This document shows, piece after piece, positions 24,681 through 43,979 of a stretch of DNA of 64,000 bases. The number at the start of each line of letters is the position of its first letter. The stretch's first letter is position 1. Source of the stretch: a phage. The notes beneath the pieces are model-generated. The model did no database searches. It worked only from the letters and a program-made list of their open reading frames with translations, and was not told where the DNA came from. The translations under genes were made by a program, and so were the position numbers. Where the stretch lies: the sequence record OR896157.1. One strand, written 5' to 3'.

Positions 24681-24794
24681 TATAATCACCGTATAAATAT
24701 CAATAATTAGGGAGGGTTCTATCCTTCTATGGTCAAGCGTATGTACTAGAAAGAATCCGTGAAACCATTATACCACGCGGATTCTTTAAGCATA

Positions 24795-25148
24795 TTATAG
24801 AGGGATTACTTTATACTTCTTATTGCCACGAGCATCACGCTTACAAACTAATTTGCACTTCGTACCGCTTGCGATAGTGTAGTCTTCATCAACCTTCATC
24901 CGCATCCAGTCTAATACCATTCCAGATGGGTTAAAAGATTTTTCAACTTCAACCATAATCTTCGTTCCAGATTTATAGAACTTCGATTCTTGTTGTACAT
25001 GGTCAGCCAATGCTCGAGAAAATGCAGACGGACTCAGGAATTTGTTATAACCATGAGCTGCAGCTACAAATGTGTTATCTAATGCATGCTGAATGTTTTT
25101 GATAACTACCTTAGAATATCCAAGGTGTTTTTCAGGATACTGATTCAT
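24795..25148 (-). CDS. hypothetical protein
   Basis: 117-aa ORF; stop followed by a 10-bp stem hairpin; overlaps upstream ORF by 17 nt. Confidence 0.55.
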   Translation of the reverse strand: MNQYPEKHLGYSKVVIKNIQHALDNTFVAAAHGYNKFLSPSAFSRALADHVQQESKFYKSGTKIMVEVEKSFNPSGMVLDWMRMKVDEDYTIASGTKCKLVCKRDARGNKKYKVIPL

Positions 25149-25374
25149 TAAATCCCCTCATATGTTTTACGAGTTGTTGATGACGAGATTCTACATCAGT
25201 ATTAGATAAGCGTTTACGATAGACGATGATTTCTCTTCGTTTAACTCGTGACCGAGCGGCTTCAACCTTTGCGTAATGCAGTGCAGCTTCTTCTGGCTTA
25301 ATGCCAGCTTCTCGAGCGATTTCAATAAAGCTCATGCCGTTTTCATGCTTAAAATGAATCTCAATCGGTGTCAT
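25132..25374 (-). CDS. hypothetical protein with predicted helix-turn-helix segment (24.3-like position)
   Basis: 80-aa ORF; segment MSFIEIAREAGIKPEEAALHYAK looks like an HTH; AGGA Shine-Dalgarno. Confidence 0.5.
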   Translation of the reverse strand: MTPIEIHFKHENGMSFIEIAREAGIKPEEAALHYAKVEAARSRVKRREIIVYRKRLSNTDVESRHQQLVKHMRGFNESVS

Positions 25375-25431
25375 TACTTTATCCTACAGTGAAAGTTGTT
25401 GGTATAATACCACTCTCTAGAAAAAGCAAAA

Positions 25432-25447
25432 GGAGCCCGAAGGCTCC
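25432..25447 (-). terminator. GGAGCC-UUCG-GGCUCC hairpin plus U-run directly after hoc stop
   Basis: Read on minus strand: hairpin followed by TTTTGCTTTTT. Confidence 0.55.
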
Positions 25448-25449
25448 TT

Positions 25450-26853
25450 TTAATAGATGATGCCAGCTTCTAAAGCTGAACGATGAACAATACGTCCATT
25501 CCGTGATTCTTGCACATCAACTTCTGGATAATCATCTAGCATTTTAGCTAGTGTATATCGGTGCAAGTAATAATCGCTGTCGGTGTCATCAAGTTTCCAA
25601 TCTTTTCCTGCGACAGTCATTTCTTGGATTTCATCCATGACCCACCAACCACACCAGATATAGGCTGTTCCTCGGAATGGCAGAGGATGAATATACGGAA
25701 GTTCTCCATCAGGGGCAGGAGCTACCCTTTTAGTAATAGTTACATCACCAGTTGTAGTGACTGTAACAGGAGTGTAATCTTCTGCGGAAACATCAACAGA
25801 AACACCAATCACTTGGGACCCTATATCAGACGTGTCAATCACTAAAGTGCTAGTAGAACCTTCTACAGGAGAACCATCTTTAGTCCAAGAATAAACCCCA
25901 GTTGCACCTTCAGGAGCACCGATAACATTGGCTTTAAAAGACGCCTCAGACCCCTGCTCGGTCGTAATAGACTCAGGAGTCAAAGTAACTGAAACCCCGC
26001 TCATGGTCTTTTTGGTAATCGTTACATTACCGGTTTTAGTAACTGTAACGGGTTTATAATCTGGAGCAGAAACAACAGCAGAAACCTCAATTGCCTGCGA
26101 CCCGATAGTGGATGTATCAATTTCTAGCGTACTTGTTGAGCCTTCTATAGGAGAACCGTCTTTGGCCCATGAGTAAGCTACAGATGCTCCCGCCGGCGCT
26201 CCAGTAACATCGGCTTTAAAAGATGCTTCTGCTCCCTTTTCAGCGGTAATTGAACTAGGCGTCAGAGTAACAGAAACACCACTCATGGTCTTTTTAGTGA
26301 TGGTTACGCTAGCACCTTTGCTTACAGTCACTGGATTGTAATCTGGTGCAGAAACTGTTGCTTCACAATTCAGAGTATAATTAGCCTCTGCTGACTCAGT
26401 TATGGTAATCGTTTTAGCAGTCTGACCTTCAATAACGACAGTACCACGCTTCCAAACATAAGCAATGCTTGCACCTTCTGGAGCACCAACAACGTTAGCC
26501 GTAACTACCTGAGACTGGCCAATTTCTTTAGAAACAGAAGTCGGGCTCAAAGTTAAAGTAATCGCAGGCATAGTTTTGTTCTGAACTGTAAGAGTGGTTT
26601 CTGCCTCAGCAGTTTCTGCCTCACCCTCTGCTGGGGTAACAGTAGCAACTACTTTAACAGTCTTACTGCCGGCAGGTCCTGCAGCAACATAATTCATAGC
26701 TGCGGTGACAGAAGATTGTTTTACGCCATTTACTGTCCATACAAACGTTTCTGTGCCTTCAGCTGCGGCTCCAGAAGTTGTTGCAGTAAAATTGGTTGTT
26801 GCTCCAATGACTGCCGAAGCAGCCAAAGGAGCAATAGATACGCTATAAGCCAT
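25450..26853 (-). CDS. hoc: outer capsid decoration protein Hoc with four Ig-like domains
   Basis: 467 aa; four ~94-aa Ig-like repeats then C-terminal YIHPLPF...WCGWWV capsid-binding region as in T4 Hoc; position between 24.x ORFs and inh. Confidence 0.85.
   Translation of the reverse strand: MAYSVSIAPLAASAVIGATTNFTATTSGAAAEGTETFVWTVNGVKQSSVTAAMNYVAAGPAGSKTVKVVATVTPAEGEAETAEAETTLTVQNKTMPAITLTLSPTSVSKEIGQSQVVTANVVGAPEGASIAYVWKRGTVVIEGQTAKTITITESAEANYTLNCEATVSAPDYNPVTVSKGASVTITKKTMSGVSVTLTPSSITAEKGAEASFKADVTGAPAGASVAYSWAKDGSPIEGSTSTLEIDTSTIGSQAIEVSAVVSAPDYKPVTVTKTGNVTITKKTMSGVSVTLTPESITTEQGSEASFKANVIGAPEGATGVYSWTKDGSPVEGSTSTLVIDTSDIGSQVIGVSVDVSAEDYTPVTVTTTGDVTITKRVAPAPDGELPYIHPLPFRGTAYIWCGWWVMDEIQEMTVAGKDWKLDDTDSDYYLHRYTLAKMLDDYPEVDVQESRNGRIVHRSALEAGIIY
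25723..26286 (-). repeat. tandem duplication of a 282-bp Ig-domain coding unit inside hoc
   Basis: Residues 190-283 and 284-377 of Hoc are ~75 percent identical (MSGVSVTLTP...VTITKKT twice); DNA repeats accordingly. Confidence 0.8.
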
Positions 26854-26862
26854 AGGTGTTCC

Positions 26863-27618
26863 TTATTTTAAAGTTACAAATGAAGAATTACGTGTTTCAC
26901 GAATCATAACAGACCCGTTTCTTTTGATGTAATAAATTAAACTGAACAGTGTCTGGTGTGCTGATGGGTGTCCAAACGATGTTGGACGAGATTTCCAATC
27001 AGGATTGTCTTTAATCCATTGGTAAATCCACCAAGGAAGAGTAACATATCCTGGATTCTTACCTAACAATTGGGTGTTTGGACTAAAGTTTTCAGGAAGT
27101 TCAACAATTTCTTCATTGTTAATAATTTTAACAGCCTTATCCATTTCTTCATTAAACTTTTCTTGGGTGATTGCAGTCACTGGAATAGTATGAACTTTAT
27201 CATCTGCAACTGTAATCACGGAATCACCGATTGGGGCTTCAAGAATAACGCCTTTAACCGGGTCCATTGGCTTACCAAAATGAGGGTCGATATCAGTTAC
27301 TTTCACTTGTGGCGCATCAGAAGATACAGAATCAATCAATAGACGAGCTTCTTCTTTAGCCTCATCTTTAAAAATAGCAGTGCCTTTGGCCTCGTCGTCA
27401 GCTTGAATAAGGTCATAGATTGAAAGACCGTCATTCTGCTCTGGCATGGGTTCATTAGCAAGTTTGGCCAATTCGACTTCAAGGTCAGCGACCATATTGT
27501 CAAAGGCTTTAGTTTTCTTCAGCTTGATGCCGAAGGTTTCAGCGTACTCGGCAAGCTTTTCTTTGGCTTCTTTTTTCTCAAGTGCACCGATTTCAGCAAT
27601 ATAATCTTTATCTAACAT
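26863..27618 (-). CDS. inh: probable Inh (prohead protease inhibitor) homologue
   Basis: Position between hoc and uvsW as in T4; start set at MLDKDYIAE with GAGG Shine-Dalgarno; late promoter upstream; function by synteny only. Confidence 0.6.
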   Translation of the reverse strand: MLDKDYIAEIGALEKKEAKEKLAEYAETFGIKLKKTKAFDNMVADLEVELAKLANEPMPEQNDGLSIYDLIQADDEAKGTAIFKDEAKEEARLLIDSVSSDAPQVKVTDIDPHFGKPMDPVKGVILEAPIGDSVITVADDKVHTIPVTAITQEKFNEEMDKAVKIINNEEIVELPENFSPNTQLLGKNPGYVTLPWWIYQWIKDNPDWKSRPTSFGHPSAHQTLFSLIYYIKRNGSVMIRETRNSSFVTLK

Positions 27619-27633
27619 AGTAGCCTCGTTGTG

Positions 27634-27641
27634 TATAAATA
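27634..27641 (+). promoter_or_regulatory. late promoter box TATAAATA for uvsW
   Basis: Exact TATAAATA ~30 nt upstream of uvsW ATG in a divergent intergenic region. Confidence 0.55.
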
Positions 27642-27647
27642 TAAATG

Positions 27648-27655
27648 TATTTATA
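27648..27655 (-). promoter_or_regulatory. late promoter box TATAAATA (minus strand) for inh/hoc
   Basis: Reverse complement of tatttata gives TATAAATA ~30 nt upstream of inh ATG. Confidence 0.5.
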
Positions 27656-27670
27656 ACTAAGGAATCGGCA

Positions 27671-29173
27671 ATGCACGATATCAATGTAAAATTTCATGAT
27701 TTTAGTCATGTGTTTATTGAGTGTGATGAATCCACATTCCATGAACTAAGAGACTATTTTAGTTTTGAAGCTGATGGCTACAAATTCAATCCAAAGTATC
27801 GTTATGGACATTGGGATGGACGTATTCGTCTTCTGAACTATGACCGTCTGTTACCGTTCGGCCTAGTCGGACAAATCCGTAAATTCGCAAATAGCATGGG
27901 TTATTCAGTTTACTTCGAACCGAAGATTTTTGAGACTGAAGAAATAACTCGCAAAGATTTTGATGACTGGCTTGGTAATCTCAATATTTACTCTGGGAGT
28001 AAAAAGATTGAGCCTCACTGGTATCAGAAAGATGCTGTGTTTGAAGGGTTAGTGAATCGTCGTCGAATTTTGAACCTTCCAACATCTGCTGGTAAATCTT
28101 TAATCCAATGCTTACTTGCGCGTTATTATGTTGAGAACTATGAAGGTAAAATTTTAATCATCGTTCCAACAACAGCATTAGTTGACCAGATGATTAATGA
28201 CTTCTGTGATTATCGTCTGTTTGGCAAACAACATTGTCTTGGTATTCGCTCAGGTACAAAGCGCGATTCAGATGCAATGATTTATGTTGCCACCTGGCAG
28301 ACAGCCGTTAAACAACCAAAAGAATGGTTTCACCAATTCGGCATGATGATGAATGACGAATGTCATCTGGCTACTGGCAAATCTATTTCAACTATCGTTG
28401 CTGGTTTAAATAATTGCATGTTTAAGTTCGGCTTGTCTGGTTCATTAAAAGACGGCAAAGCTAACGTGATGCAGTATGTTGGAATGTTCGGTGAAATTTT
28501 CCGTCCAGTTTCAACATCTCAGCTCATGGAAGATGGTCAAGTAACTGACTTAAAAATTAACTCAATCTTCCTTCGTTACCCAGACGAATTCACCACTAAA
28601 ATGAAAGGTAAAACTTACCAAGAAGAAATCAAGGTAATTACCAGCGCAAAACGTCGTAACAAATGGGTAGCTAATTTAGCTGTAAAACTGGCCAAAAGAA
28701 ATGAAAACGCGTTCTTGATGTTCAAACATGTTGCTCATGGTAAAGAGCTGTTTGAAATGATTAAAGAACTTGGACATGAGAAGGTGTATTACGTTTCAGG
28801 CGAAGTATCAACTGAAGTTCGTAACGCATTGAAGGTAATGGCTGAAAACGGTACGGGGATTATTGTAGTTGCATCTTACGGTGTATTCTCTACTGGTATT
28901 TCCGTTAAGAATCTTCACCATGTTATTTTAGCTCATCCAGTTAAGTCTAAAATTATCGTTCTGCAGACTATCGGTCGTGTACTTCGTAAGCATGATTCTA
29001 AATCAATTGCTACAGTATGGGATATCATCGATGATATGGGTGTTAAACCAAAATCAGCAAATGCCAAGAAGAAATACGTTCATTTGAACTATGCTTTAAA
29101 GCACGCGCTGGAGCGCATTCAGAGATATGCAGACGAAAAATTCAATTACGTAATGAAACAAATCGATATTTGA
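27671..29173 (+). CDS. uvsW: UvsW recombination/repair helicase (SF2)
   Basis: Start moved to ATG giving MHDINVKFHDFSHVFIECDESTFHELRDYF (T4 UvsW MDIKVHFHDFSHVRIDCEE...); Walker A PTSAGKS; AAGGA Shine-Dalgarno. Confidence 0.93.
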   Translation: MHDINVKFHDFSHVFIECDESTFHELRDYFSFEADGYKFNPKYRYGHWDGRIRLLNYDRLLPFGLVGQIRKFANSMGYSVYFEPKIFETEEITRKDFDDWLGNLNIYSGSKKIEPHWYQKDAVFEGLVNRRRILNLPTSAGKSLIQCLLARYYVENYEGKILIIVPTTALVDQMINDFCDYRLFGKQHCLGIRSGTKRDSDAMIYVATWQTAVKQPKEWFHQFGMMMNDECHLATGKSISTIVAGLNNCMFKFGLSGSLKDGKANVMQYVGMFGEIFRPVSTSQLMEDGQVTDLKINSIFLRYPDEFTTKMKGKTYQEEIKVITSAKRRNKWVANLAVKLAKRNENAFLMFKHVAHGKELFEMIKELGHEKVYYVSGEVSTEVRNALKVMAENGTGIIVVASYGVFSTGISVKNLHHVILAHPVKSKIIVLQTIGRVLRKHDSKSIATVWDIIDDMGVKPKSANAKKKYVHLNYALKHALERIQRYADEKFNYVMKQIDI

Positions 29174-29180
29174 GGAAGCT

Positions 29181-29420
29181 ATGAGCAATCTTAAAACTTT
29201 TGAACAAATCATTTACGAGGCATCGATTGATAACTTCATGAGCAAAATTAATTCTTGTCAGACTTTAGATGGTTTGAAAGAGCTTGAGAAGTATTATGAG
29301 AAGCGCTCAAAAGAAGCTGAGCTGGCTGATTCTGATGACATCAGTGTACGGGATGCTTTGGCGGGGCGTCGAGCTGAACTCGAAGCTGCAGATGATTCTG
29401 AGTCGGAAGAAGACTTCTAA
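29181..29420 (+). CDS. uvsW.1: UvsW.1 small acidic protein
   Basis: 79-aa ORF directly after uvsW as in T4. Confidence 0.75.
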   Translation: MSNLKTFEQIIYEASIDNFMSKINSCQTLDGLKELEKYYEKRSKEAELADSDDISVRDALAGRRAELEAADDSESEEDF

Positions 29421-29427
29421 TAAAAAG

Positions 29428-29445
29428 GCCCCTCGAAAGAGGGGC
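29428..29445. terminator. bidirectional hairpin GCCCCTC-GAAA-GAGGGGC between uvsW.1 and convergent minus-strand ORF
   Basis: Perfect 7-bp inverted repeat between convergent genes. Confidence 0.5.
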
Positions 29446-29472
29446 AAACCACAAGTGGCATAAAACACTAGG

Positions 29473-29640
29473 CTACATTAAAAGTTGCGTTTCATTTAAT
29501 TGCTCTTCTGCGCTTTCGCTTACCGGCAATTCAATCGCATAATTATAACAAGCACCTGGATGAACAGGGCCTTTATCTGTTTCAACAACCAACGCCGAAT
29601 CAATCGGTTGCTTACAGACAGCACAAATCTTTTCAGACAT
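29473..29640 (-). CDS. small Cys-rich protein (uvsY.-1-like position), possible zinc ribbon
   Basis: 55 aa from internal ATG with GAGGAG Shine-Dalgarno; CAVC...HPGAC spacing. Confidence 0.5.
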   Translation of the reverse strand: MSEKICAVCKQPIDSALVVETDKGPVHPGACYNYAIELPVSESAEEQLNETQLLM

Positions 29641-29673
29641 GATTGTCTCCTCAGTTATTAACAATTCTATTTA

Positions 29674-30087
29674 TTAGTCACCTGCTTCAAACCTACGCAT
29701 ATCAATAATATGCTTGATTGAGAATCCACGAGATTTGATAGCATCCATCGCATCACGACAGAACTCCAACAAAATACCCCAATATTGCAAACTTGTATCA
29801 ATACGAAGAACTTCTTTATCAGCAGACAGAACAGTCTTCATTTCGGACTTTTCATAACGGTCCATGCTGAACTCGTCACCATCGCCTCTGCCTGTGTAAT
29901 AATCCAACTTCTGCTTTAACGCGGACTTCTTCGAAGCCTCGATGCGAAGCATTTCTTTACGAATAGCAGACAATTTTGTCAACCATTTACCATAAAGAAC
30001 TGGATTATTAGCTGCTTCATACTGCAATTTAGTTGAATCAATAATCAAATCTTGTTTCAACTCTTCCTGTAAATCTTCAAGCTTCAT
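29674..30087 (-). CDS. uvsY: UvsY recombination mediator
   Basis: Start at MKLEDLQEELK (T4 UvsY MRLEDLQEELK); near-identical throughout. Confidence 0.93.
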   Translation of the reverse strand: MKLEDLQEELKQDLIIDSTKLQYEAANNPVLYGKWLTKLSAIRKEMLRIEASKKSALKQKLDYYTGRGDGDEFSMDRYEKSEMKTVLSADKEVLRIDTSLQYWGILLEFCRDAMDAIKSRGFSIKHIIDMRRFEAGD

Positions 30088-30136
30088 AATCACCTTTCTT
30101 TGTTCAATTTGTTACTCTAGCAAGGAACTCAAAACC

Positions 30137-30161
30137 ATTATAACCATCTTGAAATGAAAGC
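30137..30161 (-). promoter_or_regulatory. candidate MotA-dependent middle promoter for uvsY
   Basis: Minus strand reads GCTTTCA-N12-TATAAT, resembling MotA box plus sigma70 -10; T4 uvsY has a middle promoter. Confidence 0.35.
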
Positions 30162-30163
30162 GA

Positions 30164-30562
30164 TTAGTTACGGCTTGAGCTTGCCAACTGAAGCTTAATC
30201 TGCTCAAGGTCGTCCGGGTTGTCAACTACAGAGAACCGAACTTCAACGATAAGCGTATGGTCATCGTAAACCGGAGTAACATTCACTTGTAGACGACGGA
30301 CTCGCGGTTCATAGTTTCTTATAGCAGATATGATATTTCGTTCTACTGTATCAGCTGTCAGAGGAGTCATGTTCTCGAAAAGCTGGTCTTGTAAATCACA
30401 CCCAAAGTTAGGGTCGAATGGACGGCTTCCCTTTCTTGTTGTTATAATACCTAAAAGAGAGTTTTTAATTGCTCGTAACCCACGAGCACGTGCCACGTCT
30501 TTGGACCAATCCATTTTAAGTTCAGGGTCCAAATCCGAATAAAGGTCATTTATATTTGCCAT
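30164..30562 (-). CDS. 25: baseplate wedge protein gp25
   Basis: 132 aa, same as T4; TAATG overlap with gene 26. Confidence 0.9.
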   Translation of the reverse strand: MANINDLYSDLDPELKMDWSKDVARARGLRAIKNSLLGIITTRKGSRPFDPNFGCDLQDQLFENMTPLTADTVERNIISAIRNYEPRVRRLQVNVTPVYDDHTLIVEVRFSVVDNPDDLEQIKLQLASSSRN

Positions 30563-31191
30563 TACAGATACCTGAAGAATTCTTTAAGGCCTTTAATCAC
30601 TTCAACGTGAGTTGCTCCGCATTTCTGACATTTCACAGGAACTGCTAGATAAACGGTAGGCTTTAAAAGCATATTTTTGATGCGGATAATATCCTCTTCA
30701 GTGATAGCTGAGTAAAGGTCATCGATTTCTTTGTCATTCAAATCTTCGATTGAAATGGTTTCACCATTCACATAGATGTACTCGATGCACGTAGCAATCA
30801 TCTGTGCGATGTTCTTATCATCGAATAATTTTGGATAACGAAGCTTAAGTTTAAAATTCGCTAGAGGATACCAGAGTTCCTCTGGTTCATCGATTTGTGC
30901 AGATGTAAAGTTAATCGGTGTTAATGTTTCGTGACCTTCTGGACATATCCAGATGTTCTCATGATTAACCTCACCTAATGAGTGAGACCATAACTGAATC
31001 AGCAGAAGTTCTGATTCTTGCTTGTTAAGGTTTTTCGCTGATGTACAATTATTAATCAGCCGTTTTACTACTTCATCAATGTTTCCATTGATTTTGCCAT
31101 CGATGAGCTCTTTGTATTCTTCTAACGTAAAAGCTCTGCATTGAATATCAGAGCCATTAATCTGGACTTCAAATTTGTAATCGTAGTTCAT
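30562..31191 (-). CDS. 26: baseplate hub assembly protein gp26
   Basis: 209 aa vs 208 in T4; divergent from gene 51 as in T4. Confidence 0.88.
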   Translation of the reverse strand: MNYDYKFEVQINGSDIQCRAFTLEEYKELIDGKINGNIDEVVKRLINNCTSAKNLNKQESELLLIQLWSHSLGEVNHENIWICPEGHETLTPINFTSAQIDEPEELWYPLANFKLKLRYPKLFDDKNIAQMIATCIEYIYVNGETISIEDLNDKEIDDLYSAITEEDIIRIKNMLLKPTVYLAVPVKCQKCGATHVEVIKGLKEFFRYL

Positions 31192-31208
31192 ATTAGCTCC
31201 TTACGGAC

Positions 31209-31216
31209 TATTTATA
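31209..31216 (-). promoter_or_regulatory. late promoter box TATAAATA (minus strand) for genes 26/25
   Basis: Part of the palindromic TATTTATAAATA in the 26/51 divergent intergenic region. Confidence 0.5.
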
Positions 31217-31220
31217 AATA
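31213..31220 (+). promoter_or_regulatory. late promoter box TATAAATA for gene 51
   Basis: Exact TATAAATA ~20 nt upstream of gene 51 ATG. Confidence 0.55.
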
Positions 31221-31240
31221 TTTCAATAAAGGAGACCTCT

Positions 31241-31993
31241 ATGGCCAATATAATTCGTTGTGTACTACCGGACGGGGTCCATCGTTTTAAACCCTTCACG
31301 GTAGCTGATTACAGAGATTTTCTTCTGGTTCGTAACGACATGCAACACAAAACTTACGAAGAGCAGAAGGTGATTATAAAAGAACTTTTAGCTGATTACT
31401 TTGGTGAATATCCAGAGACTTTACGTCCATACATGTTCATGAAGGTATTCACTGGCTCAATCGGTAAAACAAAAATTCCGGTGGCTTTCACTTGTCCGAC
31501 TTGCGAAAAACAAAAGCAAGTTCTGTTTGATATCAGTCAAGAGGATTTGGTTGAACCGACAATCGAAGTAGCTGGAATCACAATAGCTTTTAAATTTCCT
31601 GAGAGGGAATATGAAGATAAAGCTGCAATGATTTACGATTGCATTAAAGCAATTAAATACAACAATCAATGGTATCCTTGGAAAGAGATGTCAGAAGACA
31701 ACCAAATCCAAGTAATAGAAGCAATTGACTTCACAACGTTTGAAAAGATTTACACTCAATTAACTCCGATGAGATTTGAGCTTAAGATGAAATGTTGTGA
31801 GTTGAGAACAAACGTGTATGAAGACATTTTATCAGTCTTTAAGCTTCTGATAAACCCGGATGAAATTTTTAGCTTCTACCAAATCAATCACACTCTTGTT
31901 AAAAGTTCATACGATTTGAATAGTATAATGGGTATGATTCCAATCGAGCGAAGCATCGCCCTTTCGTTAGTAGAGAAGGACAATAAGAAATGA
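31241..31993 (+). CDS. 51: baseplate hub assembly catalyst gp51
   Basis: 250 aa vs 249 in T4; synteny. Confidence 0.88.
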
Positions 31994-33174
31994 CAGTACT
32001 ACAACGTCCAGGTTTTCCTAACTTAAGCATAAAGCTCTATGAAAATTACGATGCTTGGTTAGATAACCGTTTCCTTGAATTAGCAGCAACTGTAACGACA
32101 CTCACTATGCGCGATGGTCTTTATGGAAGAAATGAAGGAATGCTGCAATTCTATGATAACAAAAATATGCATACCAAAATGAATGGTGACCAAATCATTC
32201 AAATTTCTGTGGCCAATGCAAATAGTAAAAGAACATTGAACCGCATTTATGGATGCAAACACTTTTCGGTTTCGGTTGACTCTAAAGGCGATAACATCAT
32301 CGCAATTCAACTTGGATTGGTGCATGAGATTATCAACCTCAAATTTAGTCGTTGTTTCTTCAACGACGCTGGAGAGTCAATTAAAGAGATGATTGGTGTA
32401 ATTTACCAAGACACTCCTCATATTGCTCCAGCTATAAACTCAATTAACACTTACGTTCCACGAGTTCCATGGACGAGTACGTTAAAAGACTATTTAGCTT
32501 GGGTTAGAGAAATATCTCTTGCTGTTGAAAGTGACCAGTTCGTGTTTGTGTGGGAAGATATCTATGGCATCAACATGATGGACTACGCGTTTATGATTGC
32601 CCAAGAGCCTATCCCGGTTGTTGTTGGTGAACCTCGCCAAATTGGCCAAATGATTAATGAACTGAACACCGACCTTGCTTATAATTTCGAGTGGCTTACT
32701 AAAGCTAATCAATTCACGCGTAACCCAATGGCTAATGCTACATTTTATGCCCACAGCTTCTTGGATAACCAATTCCCTCGAATTATTACTGGCGATGGTT
32801 ATAACTCGGTTTTGGTATCTCGCTCAGGTTCATATTCTGAAATGACTTATCGTAATGCATATGAAGAAGCTTTACGATTAGGAACAATGGCGCAATATGA
32901 CGGTTATGCTAAGTGCACTATGGTTGGTAACTTTGAATATACTCCAGGAAAAAAGATAAACTTCTTTGACCCTAAAAACCAATTCCGCACAAACTTTTAC
33001 GTAGATGAAGTTATTCATGAAGTTTCTAACAACCAGTCAATAACTACATTATACATGTTTACTAACGGACAGAACTTAAGTCCAGTAGAACCAATTAAGG
33101 TGAAAAATGAATTTAAACCTAATACTTCCAATGAAAACAATTCAAGTGAACCAGAAGGAAATAAAAATTCCTAA
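31990..33174 (+). CDS. 27: baseplate hub protein gp27
   Basis: 394 aa; [23 protein letters not shown] matches T4 gp27 N-terminus; ATGA overlap with 51. Confidence 0.93.
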
Positions 33175-33634
33175 GCTTGGATTGAAGCATCACAACATGC
33201 TGAAAGAAGTTAAATCTCCGGAAGAGAATTTATCGCTGCTGATTAATTCAATTCATCCAGGTTTAACACCAGCCGAAATCGATTACGTTTCAATTCATTT
33301 ACTTGAGTTCAACGGTAAGATTAAAAGTAAGGTAGTCAAAGATGATTTTGAATATGACCTTTCAACTTTAAGAATTGTTCAACGATTAGAATTTCAATTC
33401 GCTGGTCATACTTTCAAATTCAGAGCTCCTAAGCAGTTTGAAGGATTTGGCGGTGTTGATAAGATGCTTTCAAAATGCCTTGAAACGGTAGACGGTAAAA
33501 AAGAAGATGTCGACTTCATGAAGATGCCAGCATTTGTAACTAAATGGGCAGACGACATTTCAAGTACCGTAGCAGTAAGCGGCCCTAATGGCGACATCAG
33601 AGGAGTTGCCAAAATCATAGGAATTTTTGAATGA
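33107..33634 (+). CDS. 28: baseplate hub distal subunit gp28
   Basis: 175 aa vs 177 in T4; AAGGTGA Shine-Dalgarno; start overlaps gene 27 by 68 nt in another frame, so start is less certain. Confidence 0.8.
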
Positions 33635-35391
33635 AAACCGAAAACATGAAGACGATGCGTCGGAAGGTTATTGAAGAGGGTCGTAGTGAAAGAGATGCAG
33701 CGAAAGCTGCATCAACTCAAGCCGAATCTTTATCAGTTCTTTCTTCCCAGCTTGATGATTTACAAACTCAAGCTGAGCTTACGTCTGAAGTAATTGAGGA
33801 TAAAGGTAATCAAGTTATTGATGCCTTGAATCGCGTTGACCAAAGCATAATTGATACTACAGCCGGAGCTGAATTAACAGCCGAAGCATCTGAAAGAACT
33901 ACAGAAGCTGTTAAGCAGCAGACTGAAGTATCAAACAAGATTTCAGATAAGCTCAGTAAGCTAACAGAACTTTTAAATGAACGTCTTTCAGCTATCACTC
34001 CGAATCTTCCACAGATATCTGTTCCAGATACATCACTGTCTGTAGTTGAAGATGCAGTACCTGTTGATATAGTGACACCAGGGTTACCAGAATTACTTCA
34101 GGAGTTAATTCCGGACCCGGTCAATAATACCAATAACCCTAATGATGCGTTCTTCCCTACCGTTCCAGAGAACCCAGAGAGTGATTCTAAAAAGGGAGCT
34201 GATGAGGAACGTAAGAAGAAAGACTCTGACACTCTGAGCAATCTGCTTAAAGCGACAAAAAGCGGATTCAAAGCTTCAATGAGCATTACAGACAGAATAG
34301 CTGGAATGCTTTTCAAGTACACTGTAACTGCTGTGATTGAAGCTGCTAAAACAGCTGCACTGCTGTTCTCTATCGTGCTCGGTATAGATGTTATAATGAA
34401 GCACTTCAAGTATTGGTCAGATAAATTCACTTCTGATTTTGATAAGTTCTCCGAAGAAGCTGGAGCGTGGGGAAGCACATTATCATCTATATTTGGAACA
34501 CTTGAAAATATTCAGAAGTTCTGGGAAGCTGGAGATTGGTCTGGATTAACTGTGGCTATTGTAAAAGGCGTAACTGAAATCATTTACAACCTCGGCGAAC
34601 TCATTTCTTTGGGAATGTCAAAAGTGGCTGCTGCTATTCTTTCACTTATTCCTGGTTTAGGAGATGCTGCATTATCTGTTGAAGGAGCTGCATTGGAAGG
34701 TTTCCAAGAAAGAACGGGTAACTCTCTTTCAAAAGAAGACCAAGACACATTAGCTAAGTATCAATCATCTAAGATTGAAAAAGGCGAAAACTTCTTCGAT
34801 AAAGTATCTCAAGGTAAAACTTGGATTGTTAACAAAATAACTGGAGATGCTAACATTTCTGATTTTGTTACAGATGAAGAAAGAGAATCCCAGAATGAAA
34901 AACTTCGTCAGATGAAACCTGAAGAAAGGGAACAAGTTCTGAAGAAAGGGAATGAAGCTCGTGCTGCTATTGTTAGATTTGAAAAATACATGGAACAAAT
35001 CAACCCTGATGATAAACGCTCAGTTGAATCAGCTGATAAAGCATATGCTAATCTTCAAACGCAGTTAAACGACACTGACCTGAATAATTCTCCTGTAACT
35101 AAAAAAGAATTAAGTGCTCGTATGAATATTGTTACTGCTAAGTATGATAAGCTCAAAGGTAAAGAACCTCAGCCTGCTCCATCGTCTCAATCTGAGGATG
35201 TTAAAAAAGTCGAAAGCATTGAGAAGAATAAAGCGGCTAAAGAGGCTTCATTAGGTACTAGTGCTGGAGCTGCTGCGGCTAACTTGTTCAATACAAATAA
35301 CGTCATTAACAACAGTAGAACTATAAATACTGTTAGTCCTGTAACGAGCACTAATGCTCCAGGCGTATTTGGTGCAACTGGTGTTAACTAA
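33631..35391 (+). CDS. 29: baseplate hub / tail length determinator gp29
   Basis: 586 aa vs 590 in T4; ATGA overlap with 28. Confidence 0.9.
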   Translation: MKTENMKTMRRKVIEEGRSERDAAKAASTQAESLSVLSSQLDDLQTQAELTSEVIEDKGNQVIDALNRVDQSIIDTTAGAELTAEASERTTEAVKQQTEVSNKISDKLSKLTELLNERLSAITPNLPQISVPDTSLSVVEDAVPVDIVTPGLPELLQELIPDPVNNTNNPNDAFFPTVPENPESDSKKGADEERKKKDSDTLSNLLKATKSGFKASMSITDRIAGMLFKYTVTAVIEAAKTAALLFSIVLGIDVIMKHFKYWSDKFTSDFDKFSEEAGAWGSTLSSIFGTLENIQKFWEAGDWSGLTVAIVKGVTEIIYNLGELISLGMSKVAAAILSLIPGLGDAALSVEGAALEGFQERTGNSLSKEDQDTLAKYQSSKIEKGENFFDKVSQGKTWIVNKITGDANISDFVTDEERESQNEKLRQMKPEEREQVLKKGNEARAAIVRFEKYMEQINPDDKRSVESADKAYANLQTQLNDTDLNNSPVTKKELSARMNIVTAKYDKLKGKEPQPAPSSQSEDVKKVESIEKNKAAKEASLGTSAGAAAANLFNTNNVINNSRTINTVSPVTSTNAPGVFGATGVN

Positions 35392-35400
35392 GGAATAATC

Positions 35401-36450
35401 ATGGCTATAAGAGCTACAGAAATTCTAGATAAAGATTTCGGCAGTGGAGAAAAGACCTCTGCCGGTCAAAGTTCTATTTCGTCAACTCGAAGAAGTACTA
35501 TAGTAGCTCAATACCCGGCACAACGTGCCGCCGGTAACGATGCTGCAGGAGACCTTCGTGTTCATGACCTTTATAAAAATGGATTGCTTTTTACCGCATA
35601 TGATATGAGTTCAAGAACATCTCCGGACCTTCGTAATATGCGTCAATCCCAATTGAGTAAATCAGCGAGTTCTATTCTTAATAGCCTCGGAATTAAAAAT
35701 AACGGCCAAGTTGATAAATCTCCGATTGCGAATATTTTACTTCCACGTTCTAAATCTGACGTTGAATCAACTTCTCACAAGTTCAATGACGTTGGTGAAT
35801 CATTAATTACTCGTGGAAATAATTCAGCTACTGGAGTATTGAGTAACGTTGCATCCACAGCAGTATTTGGTGCATTAGATTCAGTCACTCAAGGTCTGAT
35901 GGCCGACAATAACGAGCAAATCTATAATACTGCGCGAAGCATGTATGCGGGAGCAGATAACAGAACAAAAGTATTCACTTGGGATTTGACTCCTCGTTCA
36001 GTAGCTGATTTAGTTTCAATTATTCAGATATACGAGTGCTTTAATTATTTCAGCTATGGCGAAACTGGCAATTCAAGTTACGCTAAAGAATTAAAAGGCC
36101 AATTAGATGAGTGGTACAAAACAACTCTGCTGTCTCCATTAACTCCAGATGGAGCTGATTTGAACAACACGATGTTTGAAAATATCACTTCATTCTTAAG
36201 TAACGTTATTGTTGTAACTAACCCAACGGTGTGGTTCATCAGAAACTTTGGTAAGACATCTAAATTTGATGGAAGAACCGAGTTGTTTGGTCCATGCCAG
36301 ATTCAGAGTATTCGCTTTGATAAAACTCCGAATGGTCAATTCAATGGTTTAGCAATTGCTCCTAATATGCCAAGCACTTTTACTCTGGAAATTACTTTCC
36401 GTGAAATCTTGACATTAAGCAGGGCATCACTTTATGCAGAAGGTTTCTAA
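35401..36450 (+). CDS. 48: baseplate tail tube cap gp48
   Basis: 349 aa; position between 29 and 54. Confidence 0.88.
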   Translation: MAIRATEILDKDFGSGEKTSAGQSSISSTRRSTIVAQYPAQRAAGNDAAGDLRVHDLYKNGLLFTAYDMSSRTSPDLRNMRQSQLSKSASSILNSLGIKNNGQVDKSPIANILLPRSKSDVESTSHKFNDVGESLITRGNNSATGVLSNVASTAVFGALDSVTQGLMADNNEQIYNTARSMYAGADNRTKVFTWDLTPRSVADLVSIIQIYECFNYFSYGETGNSSYAKELKGQLDEWYKTTLLSPLTPDGADLNNTMFENITSFLSNVIVVTNPTVWFIRNFGKTSKFDGRTELFGPCQIQSIRFDKTPNGQFNGLAIAPNMPSTFTLEITFREILTLSRASLYAEGF

Positions 36451-37412
36451 TGCTTAATTTAGATGAATTCAACAACCAAGTAATGAACGTTGATTTTCAA
36501 CGTACAAATATGTTTAGTTGTGTATTCGCAACGACTCCATCTGCAAAGTCTCAATTATTGTTGGACCAATTCGGTGGAATGCTTTATAATAACTTGCCAG
36601 TCTCAGGAGACTGGCTTGGATTATCTCAAGGCGAATTTACACAAGGAATTACATCAATTATCACTGCAGGTACTCAAGAACTAGTTCGTAAATCGGGTGT
36701 ATCTAAGTACCTTATCGGTGCAATGACAAACCGTGTTGTTCAATCTTTATTGGGAGAATTTGAAGTTGGTACTTATTTACTTGACTTCTTCAATATGGCT
36801 TTCCCAACATCAGGATTGATGATTTATTCAGCTAAAATTCCTGATAACAGACTGTCACACGAAACAGATTGGCTTCATAACTCTCCGAATATTCGTATCA
36901 CCGGAAGAGAATTGGAACCACTTACATTAAGTTTCCGAATGGATTCTGAAGCAAGCAACTGGAGAGCAATGCAAGACTGGGTTAACTCTGTACAAGACCC
37001 AGTCACTGGATTAAGAGCTCTTCCTGTTGACGTTGAAGCCGATATTCAAGTTAACTTACATGCACGTAATGGATTACCTCATACCGTGTGTATGTTTACC
37101 GGGTGTGTTCCAGTTTCATGCGGTTCACCTGAATTTACTTGGGATGGTGACAACCAAATTGCTGTATTTGACGTTCAGTTTGCTTATCGCGTTATGCAGG
37201 TGGGTGCTGTTGGTCGTCAAGCTGCTGCTGATTGGGTTGAAGATAGGCTTGTTCATGCTATTGGAAATATTTCTGATGACATGGGTCTTGACCCATCATT
37301 GTCAAGACTTAGTAGATTAGGGGGCGCTGGCGGTGGCATTACTCAGATGGGTAATGCAATAGGGCGTAAGACTGGAATGTGGAATAGTACTTCCAAGATA
37401 CTTGGACTATAG
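36450..37412 (+). CDS. 54: baseplate tail tube initiator gp54
   Basis: 320 aa, same as T4; TAATG overlap with 48. Confidence 0.9.
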   Translation: MLNLDEFNNQVMNVDFQRTNMFSCVFATTPSAKSQLLLDQFGGMLYNNLPVSGDWLGLSQGEFTQGITSIITAGTQELVRKSGVSKYLIGAMTNRVVQSLLGEFEVGTYLLDFFNMAFPTSGLMIYSAKIPDNRLSHETDWLHNSPNIRITGRELEPLTLSFRMDSEASNWRAMQDWVNSVQDPVTGLRALPVDVEADIQVNLHARNGLPHTVCMFTGCVPVSCGSPEFTWDGDNQIAVFDVQFAYRVMQVGAVGRQAAADWVEDRLVHAIGNISDDMGLDPSLSRLSRLGGAGGGITQMGNAIGRKTGMWNSTSKILGL

Positions 37413-37417
37413 AAAAA

Positions 37418-37435
37418 GGGAGCCGAAAGGCTCCC
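37418..37435. terminator. bidirectional hairpin GGGAGCC-GAAA-GGCTCCC between gene 54 and convergent minus-strand ORF
   Basis: Perfect 7-bp inverted repeat with GNRA loop. Confidence 0.5.
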
Positions 37436-37441
37436 TTTGTT

Positions 37442-37732
37442 TTATTTACGGAACACCACGAAAGCATTAATAACAACTTCCGAAGACTGCTCAACGTTAG
37501 TTACAGTGATTTTAAACGGAACTTCACCATCGAATTTACCATTCAGAGTATAAGCGATATACCCTTCACATTTATCTTCTGGAATTCCGAACGGTGCCAG
37601 TGGAACCATTTCAACCATTCCTTTAGCAATCTTTTGAATCTCATTAAAGACCATGTTGTTGAATTCGTCAGATACTGGAACTACGCCTTCAACTACAGTT
37701 TCTTGGCCATTCATACGCAGAATCGATTTCAT
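37442..37732 (-). CDS. hypothetical early protein (alt.-1-like position)
   Basis: 96 aa from ATG (MKSILRMNGQ...) with GAGGAG Shine-Dalgarno directly downstream of a conserved early promoter. Confidence 0.6.
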   Translation of the reverse strand: MKSILRMNGQETVVEGVVPVSDEFNNMVFNEIQKIAKGMVEMVPLAPFGIPEDKCEGYIAYTLNGKFDGEVPFKITVTNVEQSSEVVINAFVVFRK

Positions 37733-37759
37733 GATGTTCTCCTCAGTTAGTGTAAGTCT

Positions 37760-37789
37760 ATAGTAACACACTTCCATGTGCGTGTAAAC
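37760..37789 (-). promoter_or_regulatory. T4-type early promoter (GTTTAC -35, TGn-extended TACTAT -10)
   Basis: Minus strand GTTTAC-N14-GTGT-TACTAT; one of 7 near-identical copies in this window. Confidence 0.55.
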
Positions 37790-37791
37790 GG

Positions 37792-39927
37792 TTAAAGAAC
37801 GAACTTCTCTGGAGTGTCTTCAACATCAATCATTGAAGCCAGCAGAGCAAGAATCTTGTTACTTTCCGACGTCTTTGTGGACTTCACAAATCCTTCAAAA
37901 TCAAATGGACCTGATTCAGGCTGAGGTTCGTCACTGTATTCTACTACTTCACCAGTTTCCATCAGAACATCACCGTCATAAACAACAGCTTCGTCTAATT
38001 GGTCAGCAGTCATTACTTCGCCTTGGATGAATTTCTGATTGTCATGCACGAGACCATCACTATAAGAAGCATCTACAATGTTGTTGACTTTCAGCATGGT
38101 ACCACGAGGCAGAATAACTTCCATTTCACCTGACATATTACTTAAGTCGCCAGGATAAACCACGTTAACTTTCTCGCCGCCAGTAATAGCCCAACCAATC
38201 ATGACTCTTGTGCTTTCAGCTTGCTGAACATCTTTAGCTGCATGAACCTCATCAGTAAGACCTAATTCAGCATAAGTCATAGAAGCTAACTTGACAGTTT
38301 CTGCACTGTTATCTGGCTGATTCAATACTGCACGAGTATTATCAGAAGCCATTGCAACCGCTTGGTTACCTTTCCAACCGCCAAAGATAATTGGAGATAA
38401 AGATGTTGAAACATAGTTTCTGAAATAGAATACTCTGTTCTTAACCATAGCTTCAAAAATTGGTTTACGAACTGACTGTGAACGCCATAAGGTAAGTCCT
38501 TCTGGAATTCTGTCGCCGCGTTTAAATGCATCGTCCAAATTTTTGATAGCAGTAGTAACTTCTTTATAAGACAGTGTATCGTAATTGTCAGCTCTATAAC
38601 GACCTAAAAGCATATTGTTGATGTCTGAATAACCGGAACCAACATACTCTTTAATGCCACGTTTTTCTGCATTTGTATATTGAAGAGGCGTACGAGTACG
38701 AGTAATATCTTCAATAGTAGCAGAAACGTTTTTAGCATAACCTTGAAGAGCTGCTTTAATCATTTTGGTACGTTCAATGTTCCAAAGATTGTTAGCCATT
38801 TGCTCTTTATCTTTTGGCTCAAGGTATTGTGGAACTTTAGTCATGATATGTTCCATTGCTTCATGTTTACGTTCTTCTAAAGAGTCCAAAAGAGTTTGAG
38901 TATATGCCTGCATACTCTTAACAGAAGTTAATGGAGCATTGCCAATTCTTGATTCAAGTTCTTTTACGAATCTTTGTTCAAATTTCTCAGATTGGCTCAA
39001 TTTAATCGTAGTCAACGATTTTAAATGGAAAATAGCACCAGTAGCTGCTAATTGAGCAGAACGAGCTTTAGCCGCTTTAGATTCTACTGCATCCTTCAAT
39101 TGCTGAGCTTCTGGAATAGGATTTGCCGTTGCGGGTTTACTGAATTCGGCAGCAGTAGCTTCGTATTTTTCAAATTCTTCTGGGTCATGAATAATGTCAG
39201 AAGTTAAAGATTGACTTGCTGCTACTTGACGACGAGATACCTTAGCACGAGCAATAACAGATTGGTCGGTACGTTTGTCGTTCTCTTGAGCAATAGTAGC
39301 TGCTAACGCTTCTGATTTAGAAACCTGTTTACCTGACTTATTGTTGATGTAAACATCGCCAACATCAGTATCAACCTTGGTGAACTCTTCTGTTGATATC
39401 TCTGGGATGCCAGGGACGGTTGAGAGGTCAACATTCTTACGATGAATAAGAACATACACGTACTTCTTATCGTAATCATAGAGTTCTTTCAGGATAACAA
39501 AACGACCGCCCAAACGACTCATCACCAAACGGTTGATAATCATCTGAACTGCTCGAGCTTGTCCACCCATTTTGCTTTTAGCAATACGGAACATAACTGC
39601 ATCCATTTTGTATTTCTTCACAGTTTGAGATACTAAGTCAAACATGGTAGAAATAACACCCAATGGATTACCACCAAGATTTTTCAGCTTAACCAAAGTA
39701 CCTTTTTCAGATACACCAAGCACAATAGCATGCATCATTTTATCGCCAGGTTTAACGTTCTTGTTAACGTCGCCACCGCCGGTGTAAGAACACATACGAA
39801 GAGCTACTGAACCTTCTGGAGCAGCAATTGCAAAAATCTGTGGAATTTTAGTTTTCGGATAAAGATTAGTGACCGGAAGCATTTCTGAATCCGCGTCAAA
39901 AATCTCATTTAATTGAAATTCGGTCAT
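37792..39927 (-). CDS. alt: Alt ADP-ribosyltransferase (virion-packaged)
   Basis: Start MTEFQLNEIFDADSEMLPVTNLYPKTKIPQIF matches T4 Alt N-terminus; R...STS...EME ADP-ribosyltransferase triad; own late promoter upstream. Confidence 0.85.
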   Translation of the reverse strand: MTEFQLNEIFDADSEMLPVTNLYPKTKIPQIFAIAAPEGSVALRMCSYTGGGDVNKNVKPGDKMMHAIVLGVSEKGTLVKLKNLGGNPLGVISTMFDLVSQTVKKYKMDAVMFRIAKSKMGGQARAVQMIINRLVMSRLGGRFVILKELYDYDKKYVYVLIHRKNVDLSTVPGIPEISTEEFTKVDTDVGDVYINNKSGKQVSKSEALAATIAQENDKRTDQSVIARAKVSRRQVAASQSLTSDIIHDPEEFEKYEATAAEFSKPATANPIPEAQQLKDAVESKAAKARSAQLAATGAIFHLKSLTTIKLSQSEKFEQRFVKELESRIGNAPLTSVKSMQAYTQTLLDSLEERKHEAMEHIMTKVPQYLEPKDKEQMANNLWNIERTKMIKAALQGYAKNVSATIEDITRTRTPLQYTNAEKRGIKEYVGSGYSDINNMLLGRYRADNYDTLSYKEVTTAIKNLDDAFKRGDRIPEGLTLWRSQSVRKPIFEAMVKNRVFYFRNYVSTSLSPIIFGGWKGNQAVAMASDNTRAVLNQPDNSAETVKLASMTYAELGLTDEVHAAKDVQQAESTRVMIGWAITGGEKVNVVYPGDLSNMSGEMEVILPRGTMLKVNNIVDASYSDGLVHDNQKFIQGEVMTADQLDEAVVYDGDVLMETGEVVEYSDEPQPESGPFDFEGFVKSTKTSESNKILALLASMIDVEDTPEKFVL

Positions 39928-39950
39928 TATGAGTCCTCTATTGTTTCTTA

Positions 39951-39958
39951 TATTTATA
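39951..39958 (-). promoter_or_regulatory. late promoter box TATAAATA (minus strand) for alt
   Basis: Reverse complement of tatttata ~25 nt upstream of alt ATG; consistent with Alt being a late virion protein. Confidence 0.55.
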
Positions 39959-39966
39959 GACAATTA

Positions 39967-39982
39967 AAGCCCCGAAGGGCTT
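39967..39982 (-). terminator. AAGCCC-UUCG-GGGCUU hairpin at the stop of the 72-aa ORF
   Basis: Perfect 6-bp stem with UUCG loop on the minus transcript. Confidence 0.45.
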
Positions 39983-40199
39983 AGACTGCAATAATATTCC
40001 TGAAGATTTCAACTTTTCCACCGCCACGAGTAGCAATGACCTCGTGTTTGTTGATTCCTGAAACTCGACCATCTGTAAATGATTCTACTTCACCTTGTGG
40101 GCGGAATGGTAATTCGACCAAGCTCTGTGTTACATTAGCGGCTCGTCCTGAGCCTTCACCTGGGTGAGCAATTGTGATAATCTCTAAATAGAATTTCAT
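39981..40199 (-). CDS. hypothetical protein, translationally coupled to DNA ligase
   Basis: 72-aa ORF whose ATG overlaps the ligase stop (ATGA); Gly-rich. Confidence 0.5.
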   Translation of the reverse strand: MKFYLEIITIAHPGEGSGRAANVTQSLVELPFRPQGEVESFTDGRVSGINKHEVIATRGGGKVEIFRNIIAV

Positions 40200-41641: not shown

Positions 41642-41666
41642 ATTCACCTCGTTTATTGTCCCGAGC

Positions 41667-41690
41667 GGGTATGACAATTATATCATACCC
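41667..41690 (-). terminator. hairpin GGGTATGA-N8-TCATACCC between the 30.1-like ORF and gene 30, containing a possible middle-promoter -10
   Basis: 8-bp inverted repeat; minus strand reads GCTTTAC-N11-TATAAT across it (MotA-box-like). Confidence 0.4.
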
Positions 41691-41699
41691 TTTGTAAAG

Positions 41700-41930
41700 C
41701 TATTGACCGCGATACTCACGAATGAGTTCAGCCAAAGTTCGGTGGTAAAGTACTCCACCATTTTTACGAGTAATGTAGATTGCGCCATTGAACATTGCAT
41801 CAATCATTTCACGTTGCTTTTGATTATCAGCATGAATGTTGCGCGCCTTGAAGAACTCTTCTTTGTTTGCGAAACTTTCAATACGCTTGGTTGCGTCTGT
41901 TTGAGGGAACCATTCAATTACGTTAATCAT
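41700..41930 (-). CDS. hypothetical protein (30.1-like position)
   Basis: 76-aa ORF with ATGA overlap to upstream ORF. Confidence 0.55.
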   Translation of the reverse strand: MINVIEWFPQTDATKRIESFANKEEFFKARNIHADNQKQREMIDAMFNGAIYITRKNGGVLYHRTLAELIREYRGQ

Positions 41931-42790: not shown

Positions 42791-42956
42791 TTTTAGCCTT
42801 CATTTTAGCAATCATGTAAGCCGCGATACAAGATTTACCCGGCAGTGATGGTTGTCCAACTCCACTTAATAGAGTAGTTAACTCTCCTACTTTAATACCG
42901 CCTTGATTTAAGCGTTTTAAAACATCAAGACCTTTCATATCATATTTGACTTGCAT
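42780..42956 (-). CDS. small hypothetical protein (58 aa)
   Basis: ORF below the 60-aa track threshold found by hand; A/T-rich third positions; competes with an overlapping 73-aa frame (42935..43156). Confidence 0.3.
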   Translation of the reverse strand: MQVKYDMKGLDVLKRLNQGGIKVGELTTLLSGVGQPSLPGKSCIAAYMIAKMKAKNVK

Positions 42957-43941: not shown

Positions 43942-43960
43942 AACTATTTCCTCAAGTAGA

Positions 43961-43974: not shown

Positions 43975-43979
43975 TAAAT

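Follow-up and report, generated by a model that had tools for sequence, protein, structure and literature searches.

Mosaic hoc gene in a Karamvirus: a four-Ig capsid-fibre array probably acquired by recombination with Jiaodavirus-type alleles

The hoc locus and its genomic surroundings

The stretch of phage DNA considered here (the window; sequence record OR896157.1) is 64,000 nt long and carries, on its minus strand, a gene that is identified by homology as hoc, whose product is the non-essential fibre on the outer capsid of T4-like phages. The protein encoded by this reading frame (25450..26853) matches PHROG 1149, 'Hoc-like head decoration' (E = 3.8e-129), and a phmmer search of PDB sequences finds it homologous over its whole length to T4 Hoc (PDB 5vf3_Z, 376 aa; E = 7e-150), with an overall amino acid identity of ~54%. 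These matches agree with the C-terminal domain and with the position of the gene, so that the identification as a Hoc homologue in the preliminary description of this DNA is upheld. The features of the locus are as follows.

25450..26853, minus strand: hoc coding sequence, 467 aa plus stop, ATG start, reading frame intact
26863..27618, minus strand: inh (inhibitor of prohead protease), the gene immediately upstream of hoc, with its final ~100 nt inside the probably imported tract described below
27648..27655, minus strand: TATAAATA (consensus of T4 late promoters), upstream of inh; a putative promoter, by sequence match only
25427..25452, minus strand: terminator-like hairpin with a stem of 11 bp and a T run after it; overlaps the hoc stop codon

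The divergent gene uvsW lies beyond inh, and the gene order is that of T4, PG7, and KPV15. On the high-coordinate side, the 20 kb from 27000 to 47000 are 98% identical to PG7, vB_VIPECLUMC02, SonariX, and other Karamvirus genomes; downstream of hoc, the 750 nt at 24700-25449 are 99.6% identical to PG7. Because these backbone flanks are 98-100% identical to Karamvirus such as PG7, the window phage is assigned by sequence to Karamvirus, the Enterobacter-type T4-like phages. Jiaodavirus genomes share only 68-75% identity with the window outside hoc. A Logan contig (L011, run ERR10682451) matches the window at 99.94% identity (4 differences in 6855 nt), and its hoc differs by 1 nt.

Domain organization of the Hoc protein

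The window Hoc consists of four Ig-like units of 94-95 aa each, followed by a capsid-binding domain at the C-terminus. These units are named here after the reference cassettes (A, B1, B2, C, and D) against which the units of related proteins were classed.

26572..26853, minus strand: Ig-like unit 1, cassette A, residues 1-94; AlphaFold2 beta domain 4-91
26287..26571, minus strand: Ig-like unit 2, cassette B2, residues 95-189; AlphaFold2 domain 99-186
26005..26286, minus strand: Ig-like unit 3, cassette C, residues 190-283; Pfam I-set/Ig_3; AlphaFold2 domain 194-280
25723..26004, minus strand: Ig-like unit 4, cassette D, residues 284-377; AlphaFold2 strands 288-374
25450..25722, minus strand: C-terminal capsid-binding domain and stop, residues 378-467; native Karamvirus type

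The Pfam families I-set and Ig_3 match the protein above their cut-offs. The AlphaFold2 model, for which an alignment of 22 homologues served as input, has four separate all-beta domains (4-91, 99-186, 194-280, and 288-374) with pLDDT mostly 86-96; the string of Ig beta-sandwiches is N-terminal, and the alpha/beta C-terminal domain is modelled less confidently. The best Foldseek matches of the model in the PDB are four-Ig fragments (Sidekick, Dscam1, and ICAM-5 D1-D4), and RB49 Hoc (3shs) is also among the matches. Domain prediction, which the preliminary description had proposed as a check, thus yields four Ig-like domains rather than three, in agreement with the unit alignment and with the repeat length of ~94 aa given there.

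T4 Hoc (PDB 5vf3, 8t1x; PMC10385173), although homologous over its full length, has three Ig units where the window Hoc has four. T4 hoc is 1131 bp long and encodes 376 aa, which bears out the length and the domain count given for it in the preliminary description. The third Ig unit of T4 Hoc aligns with units 3 and 4 alike in the window Hoc, and unit 3 (cassette C) is the 'extra' unit relative to T4 Hoc and to the Hoc of PG7-type Karamvirus.

In the same phmmer comparison, residues 378-467 pair with T4 Hoc 284-373 as part of an aligned stretch with E = 2.8e-88. PHROG 21694 and PHROG 1149 both match the C-terminus, and among 25 homologues the WCGWWVMD motif region is part of the invariant residues of the C-terminal domain. 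Because this domain is homologous to that of T4 Hoc, it would be expected to anchor one Hoc monomer at the centre of each hexamer of the major capsid protein (gp23*). For PG7, a second Hoc-like protein has been mentioned (Fokine et al., PMC10385173); a search of the window found no second protein with the Hoc anchor domain.

An old duplication behind units C and D

Units 3 and 4 form a direct repeat of 282 nt (25728-26009 and 26010-26291, 74% identity), with a weaker third copy upstream. Compared as protein domains, residues 190-283 and 284-377 (DNA 25723-26286) share 70 of 94 residues (74.5%) and 72.3% of their nucleotides, which confirms the ~75 percent identity and the 282-bp period first reported for them. 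Aligned by tblastn to the window with an offset of one unit, units 3 and 4 together retain 60.6% identity over 188 aa (E = 1e-62), well above what chance would give. The other units are more distant: unit 2 and unit 3 share 46% amino acid identity, and unit 1 shares 20-25% with the others. Tandem Repeats Finder reports no array at hoc, as is expected because two copies at ~73% identity fall below its threshold.

The preliminary description had taken this repeat for a recent duplication. The divergence at silent sites speaks against a recent date: units C and D agree at only 49% of third codon positions, and Nei-Gojobori estimates for the pair are dS 1.51 and dN 0.16, so that synonymous divergence is saturated. 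The same comparison within KP185, AShe-2020a, and a Jiaodavirus-like contig (L010) gives dS 1.1-1.5 and dN 0.12-0.16, whereas each window unit, C or D, differs from its orthologue in these three by dS of only 0.10-0.20 and dN of 0.015-0.037 (dS 0.10-0.15 for AShe-2020a and KP185); nucleotide identity to the Jiaodavirus orthologues is 95-97%. On these estimates both copies are under purifying selection (dN/dS ~0.1).

The C-D divergence of the window is also typical of its relatives, since its 74.5% identity sits within their range of 58-81% (median 75.5% within the same protein; n = 84 related proteins with both units). Many related phages therefore carry the same four-domain arrangement with equally diverged repeats, which is much of what the preliminary description had named as grounds for its refutation, and the C-D pair, which 80 of 120 homologue clusters and 28 INPHARED records contain, is not private to the lineage of the window.

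A neighbour-joining tree of the units from 54 representatives, with targeted bootstraps, places the D units of different phages in one clade (90% bootstrap) and separates C, D, and the third unit of T4 from the B units (92%). The T4 third unit falls outside C+D at 69% bootstrap, which weakly supports a C/D duplication later than the split from that unit; the T4 domain would then be co-orthologous to both C and D. Bootstrap values for a clade of C units are weak (22-44%), and the orthology of C units is accordingly based on pairwise identity and dS. By these combined measures, C and D are tandem paralogues from an old duplication, and the comparison of paralogues with orthologues is taken to show that this duplication took place before the Jiaodavirus and Karamvirus alleles of today diversified.

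Hoc forms among related phages

Three length classes of Hoc occur among the best 120 homologue clusters: 83 clusters have a Hoc of 467-472 aa, 33 one of 373-377 aa, and 4 one of 563-565 aa. Classed by cassette, the clusters are distributed as follows.

A-B1-C-D: 76 of the best 120 clusters
A-B1-D: 30
A-B1-B2-C-D: 4
A-B2-C-D (form of the window; also P0006 and Salmonella phage SG1): 3
A-B2-D: 1
A-B1-B2-D: 1
Diverged or unclassified: 5

KPV15 is a named example of A-B2-D and Kpn6N of A-B1-B2-D. All six classified architectures are order-preserving subsets of A-B1-B2-C-D, and loss of a unit is evident within Jiaodavirus from the comparison of A-B1-D with A-B1-C-D.

The commonest Hoc of the Jiaodavirus Klebsiella phages is a four-Ig protein of 468 aa with the C-D pair. 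It is A-B1-C-D where the window is A-B2-C-D, and the window differs further in that its C-terminal domain and genome are of Karamvirus type. A published instance is the Hoc-like protein of Klebsiella phage PMBT63, described, together with AlphaFold modelling, as a 468-aa protein with four Ig-like domains, one more than T4; retention of the phage in a mucin assay was reported in the same study (PMC13435897). The window Hoc shares the four Ig domains of the PMBT63 protein, including the C-D pair, at 91% amino acid identity (91-93% when other Jiaodavirus phages are included).

Karamvirus phages present a different picture. A 3.4-kb query over hoc and its flanks listed about 30 Karamvirus-type records, and in every one of them the hoc locus falls short of that in the window, by about 282 nt (three Ig units; PG7, SonariX, KaAlpha, fGh-Ecl01, and others), 560 nt (two units; vB_VIPECLUMC02, Hoc of 273 aa), or 820 nt (one unit; vB_Ent31, Hoc of 185 aa). 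PG7, whose Hoc is frameshifted in the deposited record, thus has three units, vB_VIPECLUMC02 two, and vB_Ent31 one, against four in the window. A contiguous match to C+D occurs in 28 records, all of them from phages of Klebsiella, Raoultella, or Salmonella; in the records of Enterobacter phages, two overlapping match pieces fall on one and the same unit. No genome other than the window was found with a four-Ig Hoc on a Karamvirus backbone. The comparison of Hoc lengths suggested at the outset therefore has two sides: the window Hoc exceeds T4 Hoc by one Ig domain and the Hoc of the listed Karamvirus by one to three, but four-Ig Hoc is common in Jiaodavirus.

Mosaic structure of the locus

The whole hoc gene has its best nucleotide matches in Jiaodavirus Klebsiella phages (90-91%), while Karamvirus sequences match at ~87% and lack one unit. 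Sliding identity, nucleotide alignments, and segment identities concur in resolving the gene into a mosaic with sharp breakpoints, in which a ~1.2-kb tract, covering the final ~100 nt of inh and the hoc sequence up to ~45 nt short of the Ig4 end, matches Jiaodavirus at 95-99% identity.

25778..26965, minus strand: putative recombinant tract of Jiaodavirus type, comprising the inh 3' end, Ig1-Ig3, and most of Ig4; breakpoints ~ +/-10 nt

Nucleotide identities by segment:
26966-27618, inh 5' part, of Karamvirus type: Pet-CM3-4 95.3%; PG7 91.6% (PG7 lacks 36 nt there); Jiaodavirus ≤89%, over 184 nt only
26519-26965, inh 3' end and unit A: AShe-2020a 99.3%; PG7 88.6%
26572..26853, unit A alone: AShe-2020a 99.6%; Karamvirus PG7 88.3%
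Unit B2: Kpn6N 98.5%, KPV15 96.5%; PG7 82%; B1 of AShe-2020a and KP185 79-81%
Unit C: AShe-2020a 96.5%, KP185 95%
Unit D, first 227 nt: Jiaodavirus D units 96-97%; KP185 96.9%
25450-25777, last ~47 nt of D and C-terminal domain: PG7 98.8%; Jiaodavirus 85-86%

Sites that distinguish PG7 (the Karamvirus reference) from AShe-2020a (the Jiaodavirus reference) divide 99 Jiaodavirus-like to 28 Karamvirus-like within 25778-26965 and 8 to 543 in the flanks (Fisher P = 2e-82); the Karamvirus-like sites within the tract cluster in B2, where AShe-2020a has B1. The last ~47 nt of unit D are identical to PG7. PG7 and the window thus have in common the backbone, with flanks at 98-100%, and the segment of the C-terminal domain.

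Since the nearest relatives of the tract differ from those of both flanks and the breakpoints are discrete, the simplest reading is that the window phage gained its four-Ig array by homologous recombination with Jiaodavirus-type alleles and not by duplication of its own DNA; the capsid-binding domain would have stayed native because the crossover fell just before it. Set against more than 100 Jiaodavirus records, the tract nests inside their diversity, and the direction of transfer was therefore probably from Jiaodavirus to Karamvirus. The donor clade consists of Jiaodavirus-type alleles at 95-99% identity, among which the best match changes from segment to segment: AShe-2020a for A, C, and D, and Kpn6N or KPV15 for B2. 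For units C and D, no known allele comes closer than 95-97% identity. P0006 (contig L010), a Jiaodavirus-like contig that has the A-B2-C-D form, was considered as a single donor and rejected at 91% identity and 118 differences. As a single donor allele was not found, the array may have been imported from an unsampled A-B2-C-D allele or in several events. A literature search for hoc recombination in Karamvirus returned nothing specific.

Conserved junctions between units

The boundaries between units share a conserved sequence of ~41 nt, which occurs twice in the window Hoc (a slash marks the boundary).

26258..26298, minus strand: inter-unit junction B2/C, …TKKT/MSGVSVTLTP…, ~41 nt
25976..26016, minus strand: inter-unit junction C/D, ~41 nt, same conserved sequence

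This sequence recurs at B/C, C/D, B1/B2, and B2/D boundaries in all six alleles compared. The start of B2 depends on the unit that precedes it, reading MPAITLTL after A (window, KPV15) and MSGVSVTL after B1 (Kpn6N), and this places the exchange points within or just beyond the junction. At this junction, whole Ig units could thus be gained, lost, or exchanged in register, and unequal or inter-allelic homologous recombination there would give rise to variation in Ig copy number; such a junction-mediated mechanism is suggested by the alignments.

The third unit of PG7 carries a mosaic of its own, at the nucleotide level first D-like (89-94%), then C-like (91-94%), and D-like again at its end. 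Retention of ancestral C/D states in this unit was considered and rejected, as the nucleotide identities of the blocks are 91-94% against 72-74%, which points to recombination. The three-Ig alleles of PG7 type would accordingly be products of C x D recombination themselves.

Alternative origins of the array

A recent 282-bp tandem duplication within the phage's own hoc, as the preliminary description had it, would explain why two adjacent in-frame 282-nt copies are present and why PG7 and the other closest relatives in backbone carry one unit less. It is hardly credible all the same, and is rejected on the dS values and on the occurrence of orthologous C and D units elsewhere: the copies have only 72% of their nucleotides and 49% of their third positions in common (dS ~1.5), each has a 95-97% identical orthologue in many Jiaodavirus phages, and the tract around them is foreign to the backbone. 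An in-gene event in this lineage is thus replaced by the arrival, through recombination, of an array that already held the C-D pair. Vertical inheritance of a four-Ig array ancestral in Karamvirus, with the three-Ig form of PG7, the two-Ig form of vB_VIPECLUMC02, and the one-Ig form of vB_Ent31 as later losses, draws on the D-C-D mosaic of the PG7 third unit, which implies that PG7-type alleles derive from sequences with both C and D, and on the unit loss that clearly happens in Jiaodavirus. Vertical descent predicts equal divergence of tract and flanks from Jiaodavirus, however, and this is not observed: the tract shares 95-99% identity with Jiaodavirus, whereas the adjacent backbone shares only 68-75% with Jiaodavirus against 98-100% with Karamvirus, and the breakpoints between them are sharp. 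This origin is consequently given very little probability.

The record could also be an assembly chimera, in which Karamvirus and Jiaodavirus reads of one sample were joined at conserved hoc sequence. Both breakpoints do lie in conserved sequence, and the right-hand recombinant junction has no exact match in IMG/VR, JGI metagenomes, or GTDB genomes; its only other instance is the Logan contig from run ERR10682451, which has the same structure with 4 differences in 6855 nt and possibly comes from the same source as the window. To the extent that it is separate, this contig tells against a chimera, as does the intact hoc reading frame. The tract, moreover, is itself a mosaic that equals no single known phage, with B2 of the KPV15/Kpn6N type and A, C, and D of the AShe-2020a type (95-99%). 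An assembly artefact is therefore quite unlikely. The reading preferred here, that the gene is a hoc of A-B2-C-D form in which C and D stem from an old duplication and the array was imported from Jiaodavirus-type alleles, is highly probable as a whole.

Implications for the capsid fibre and the Hoc family

It has been proposed that the Ig domains of Hoc mediate the adherence of phages to mucus and bacterial surfaces, and they also serve as a display platform. The number and type of Ig domains set the reach of the fibre and its binding surface. By analogy with T4, the Ig string of the window Hoc would project outwards from the capsid. The four-domain fibre of T4 Hoc is 180 Å long (Fokine et al. 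2023, PMC10385173), and since four domains span this length, the window fibre would be longer by about one Ig domain, or roughly 4-5 nm. The imported A-B2-C-D surface also differs from the PG7-type surface at many residues. A longer fibre or an altered adhesive surface may plausibly change adhesion, as had been supposed from the domain count.

Hoc homologues range from one or two to ten Ig domains (Fokine et al. 2023, PMC10385173). The Hoc of Serratia phage Muldoon, 1174 aa with 10 Ig domains, has a much larger array than the window Hoc; likened here by its description only, it follows the same principle of a variable number of Ig domains on a conserved capsid anchor (PMC10385173). Four-Ig Hoc is already a known and published form, and the window Hoc is an ordinary variant of a known protein, so that understanding of the Hoc family is left unchanged.

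What is new is that an array has, on the reading preferred here, moved between phage genera by homologous recombination with the capsid anchor spared; that five old cassettes, in ordered subsets and linked by a conserved junction, make up the Hoc alleles of this group; and that a four-Ig Hoc is found on a Karamvirus backbone, in the window alone. A wider proposal, whose chances we put at about even, is that hoc in Jiaodavirus, Karamvirus, and related phages is a combinatorial adhesin-cassette locus, in which five cassettes of fixed order, bounded by ~41-nt junctions, are exchanged in register within and between genera while each genome keeps its cognate anchor, allowing quick retuning of fibre length and surface specificity. 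If this holds, the window would be a caught example of the transfer of a whole Ig array between genera. These points may be of use in comparing therapeutic Enterobacter and Klebsiella phages and in engineering Hoc.

Variability of hoc within Karamvirus, and frameshifted hoc genes

Within Karamvirus, hoc is a hypervariable locus. In the genomes of vB_VIPECLUMC02 and vB_Ent31 the flanks are 98-100% identical to those of the window and the Hoc proteins are very different, their likeness to the window Hoc being limited to the last ~25-70 residues.

Hoc of two Karamvirus genomes (coordinates internal to the compared loci)
L002, 5428-6249: vB_VIPECLUMC02 Hoc, 273 aa, two divergent Ig units
L009, 1322-1879: vB_Ent31 Hoc, 185 aa, one Ig unit

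Several deposited genomes contain a frameshifted hoc, and the laboratory-evolved phages K65_evo1 and K65_evo10 have two Hoc features. These frameshifts and splits are consistent with a non-essential gene or with sequencing errors. In PG7, the downstream fragment of the split hoc corresponds to the "short Hoc" of 233 residues treated in PMC10385173.

Frameshifted hoc genes (locus-internal coordinates)
L001, 4848-5970: PG7 (NC_023561.1), one extra nucleotide, annotated as two "split" Hoc proteins
L003, 3998-5405: AShe-2020a (CP062992.1), one extra nucleotide, start ATG replaced by ATT

The adjacent inh gene

27655-27648: TATAAATA, a sequence match to the T4 late-promoter consensus
26863-27618 (-): inh, prohead protease inhibitor gene, from the favored ATG

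In the mechanical ORF list, inh begins with a TTG at 27684 (26863-27684). The 756-bp length of the annotated inh in the relatives L002 and L011 (a Logan contig, run ERR10682451), together with the position of the TATAAATA motif, favors the ATG at 27618 as the probable start instead. The window inh also contains 36 nt (12 codons; 27118-27153) that are missing in PG7 and most PG7-like records; the segment is found in fGh-Ecl01, UMC02, and Jiaodavirus phages as well. This difference is an in-frame indel polymorphism, positioned just outside the recombinant tract.

Hoc length in other phages

The hoc of Klebsiella phage TNG87 (PV402692.1; locus L006, 2501-4018) encodes a product of 505 aa, a length due to a perfect 37-aa (111-bp) duplication within cassette C (Ig-like unit 3 in the window), in which ITAEKGAEASFKADVTGAPAGASVAYSWTKDGSPVEG is present twice. 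Unless it is an assembly artefact, the repeat reflects a partial-domain duplication of truly recent date; it would probably disrupt the Ig fold of the cassette.

A T4-type Hoc, with N-terminus MAFTVDITPKTPTGVID… and C-terminus …GIIYTYP, is encoded by locus L020 (IMGVR_UViG_3300010279_000005, 2001-3407). Its length of 472 aa is that expected for four Ig units and suggests an independent expansion of Hoc in a Tequatrovirus-like lineage.
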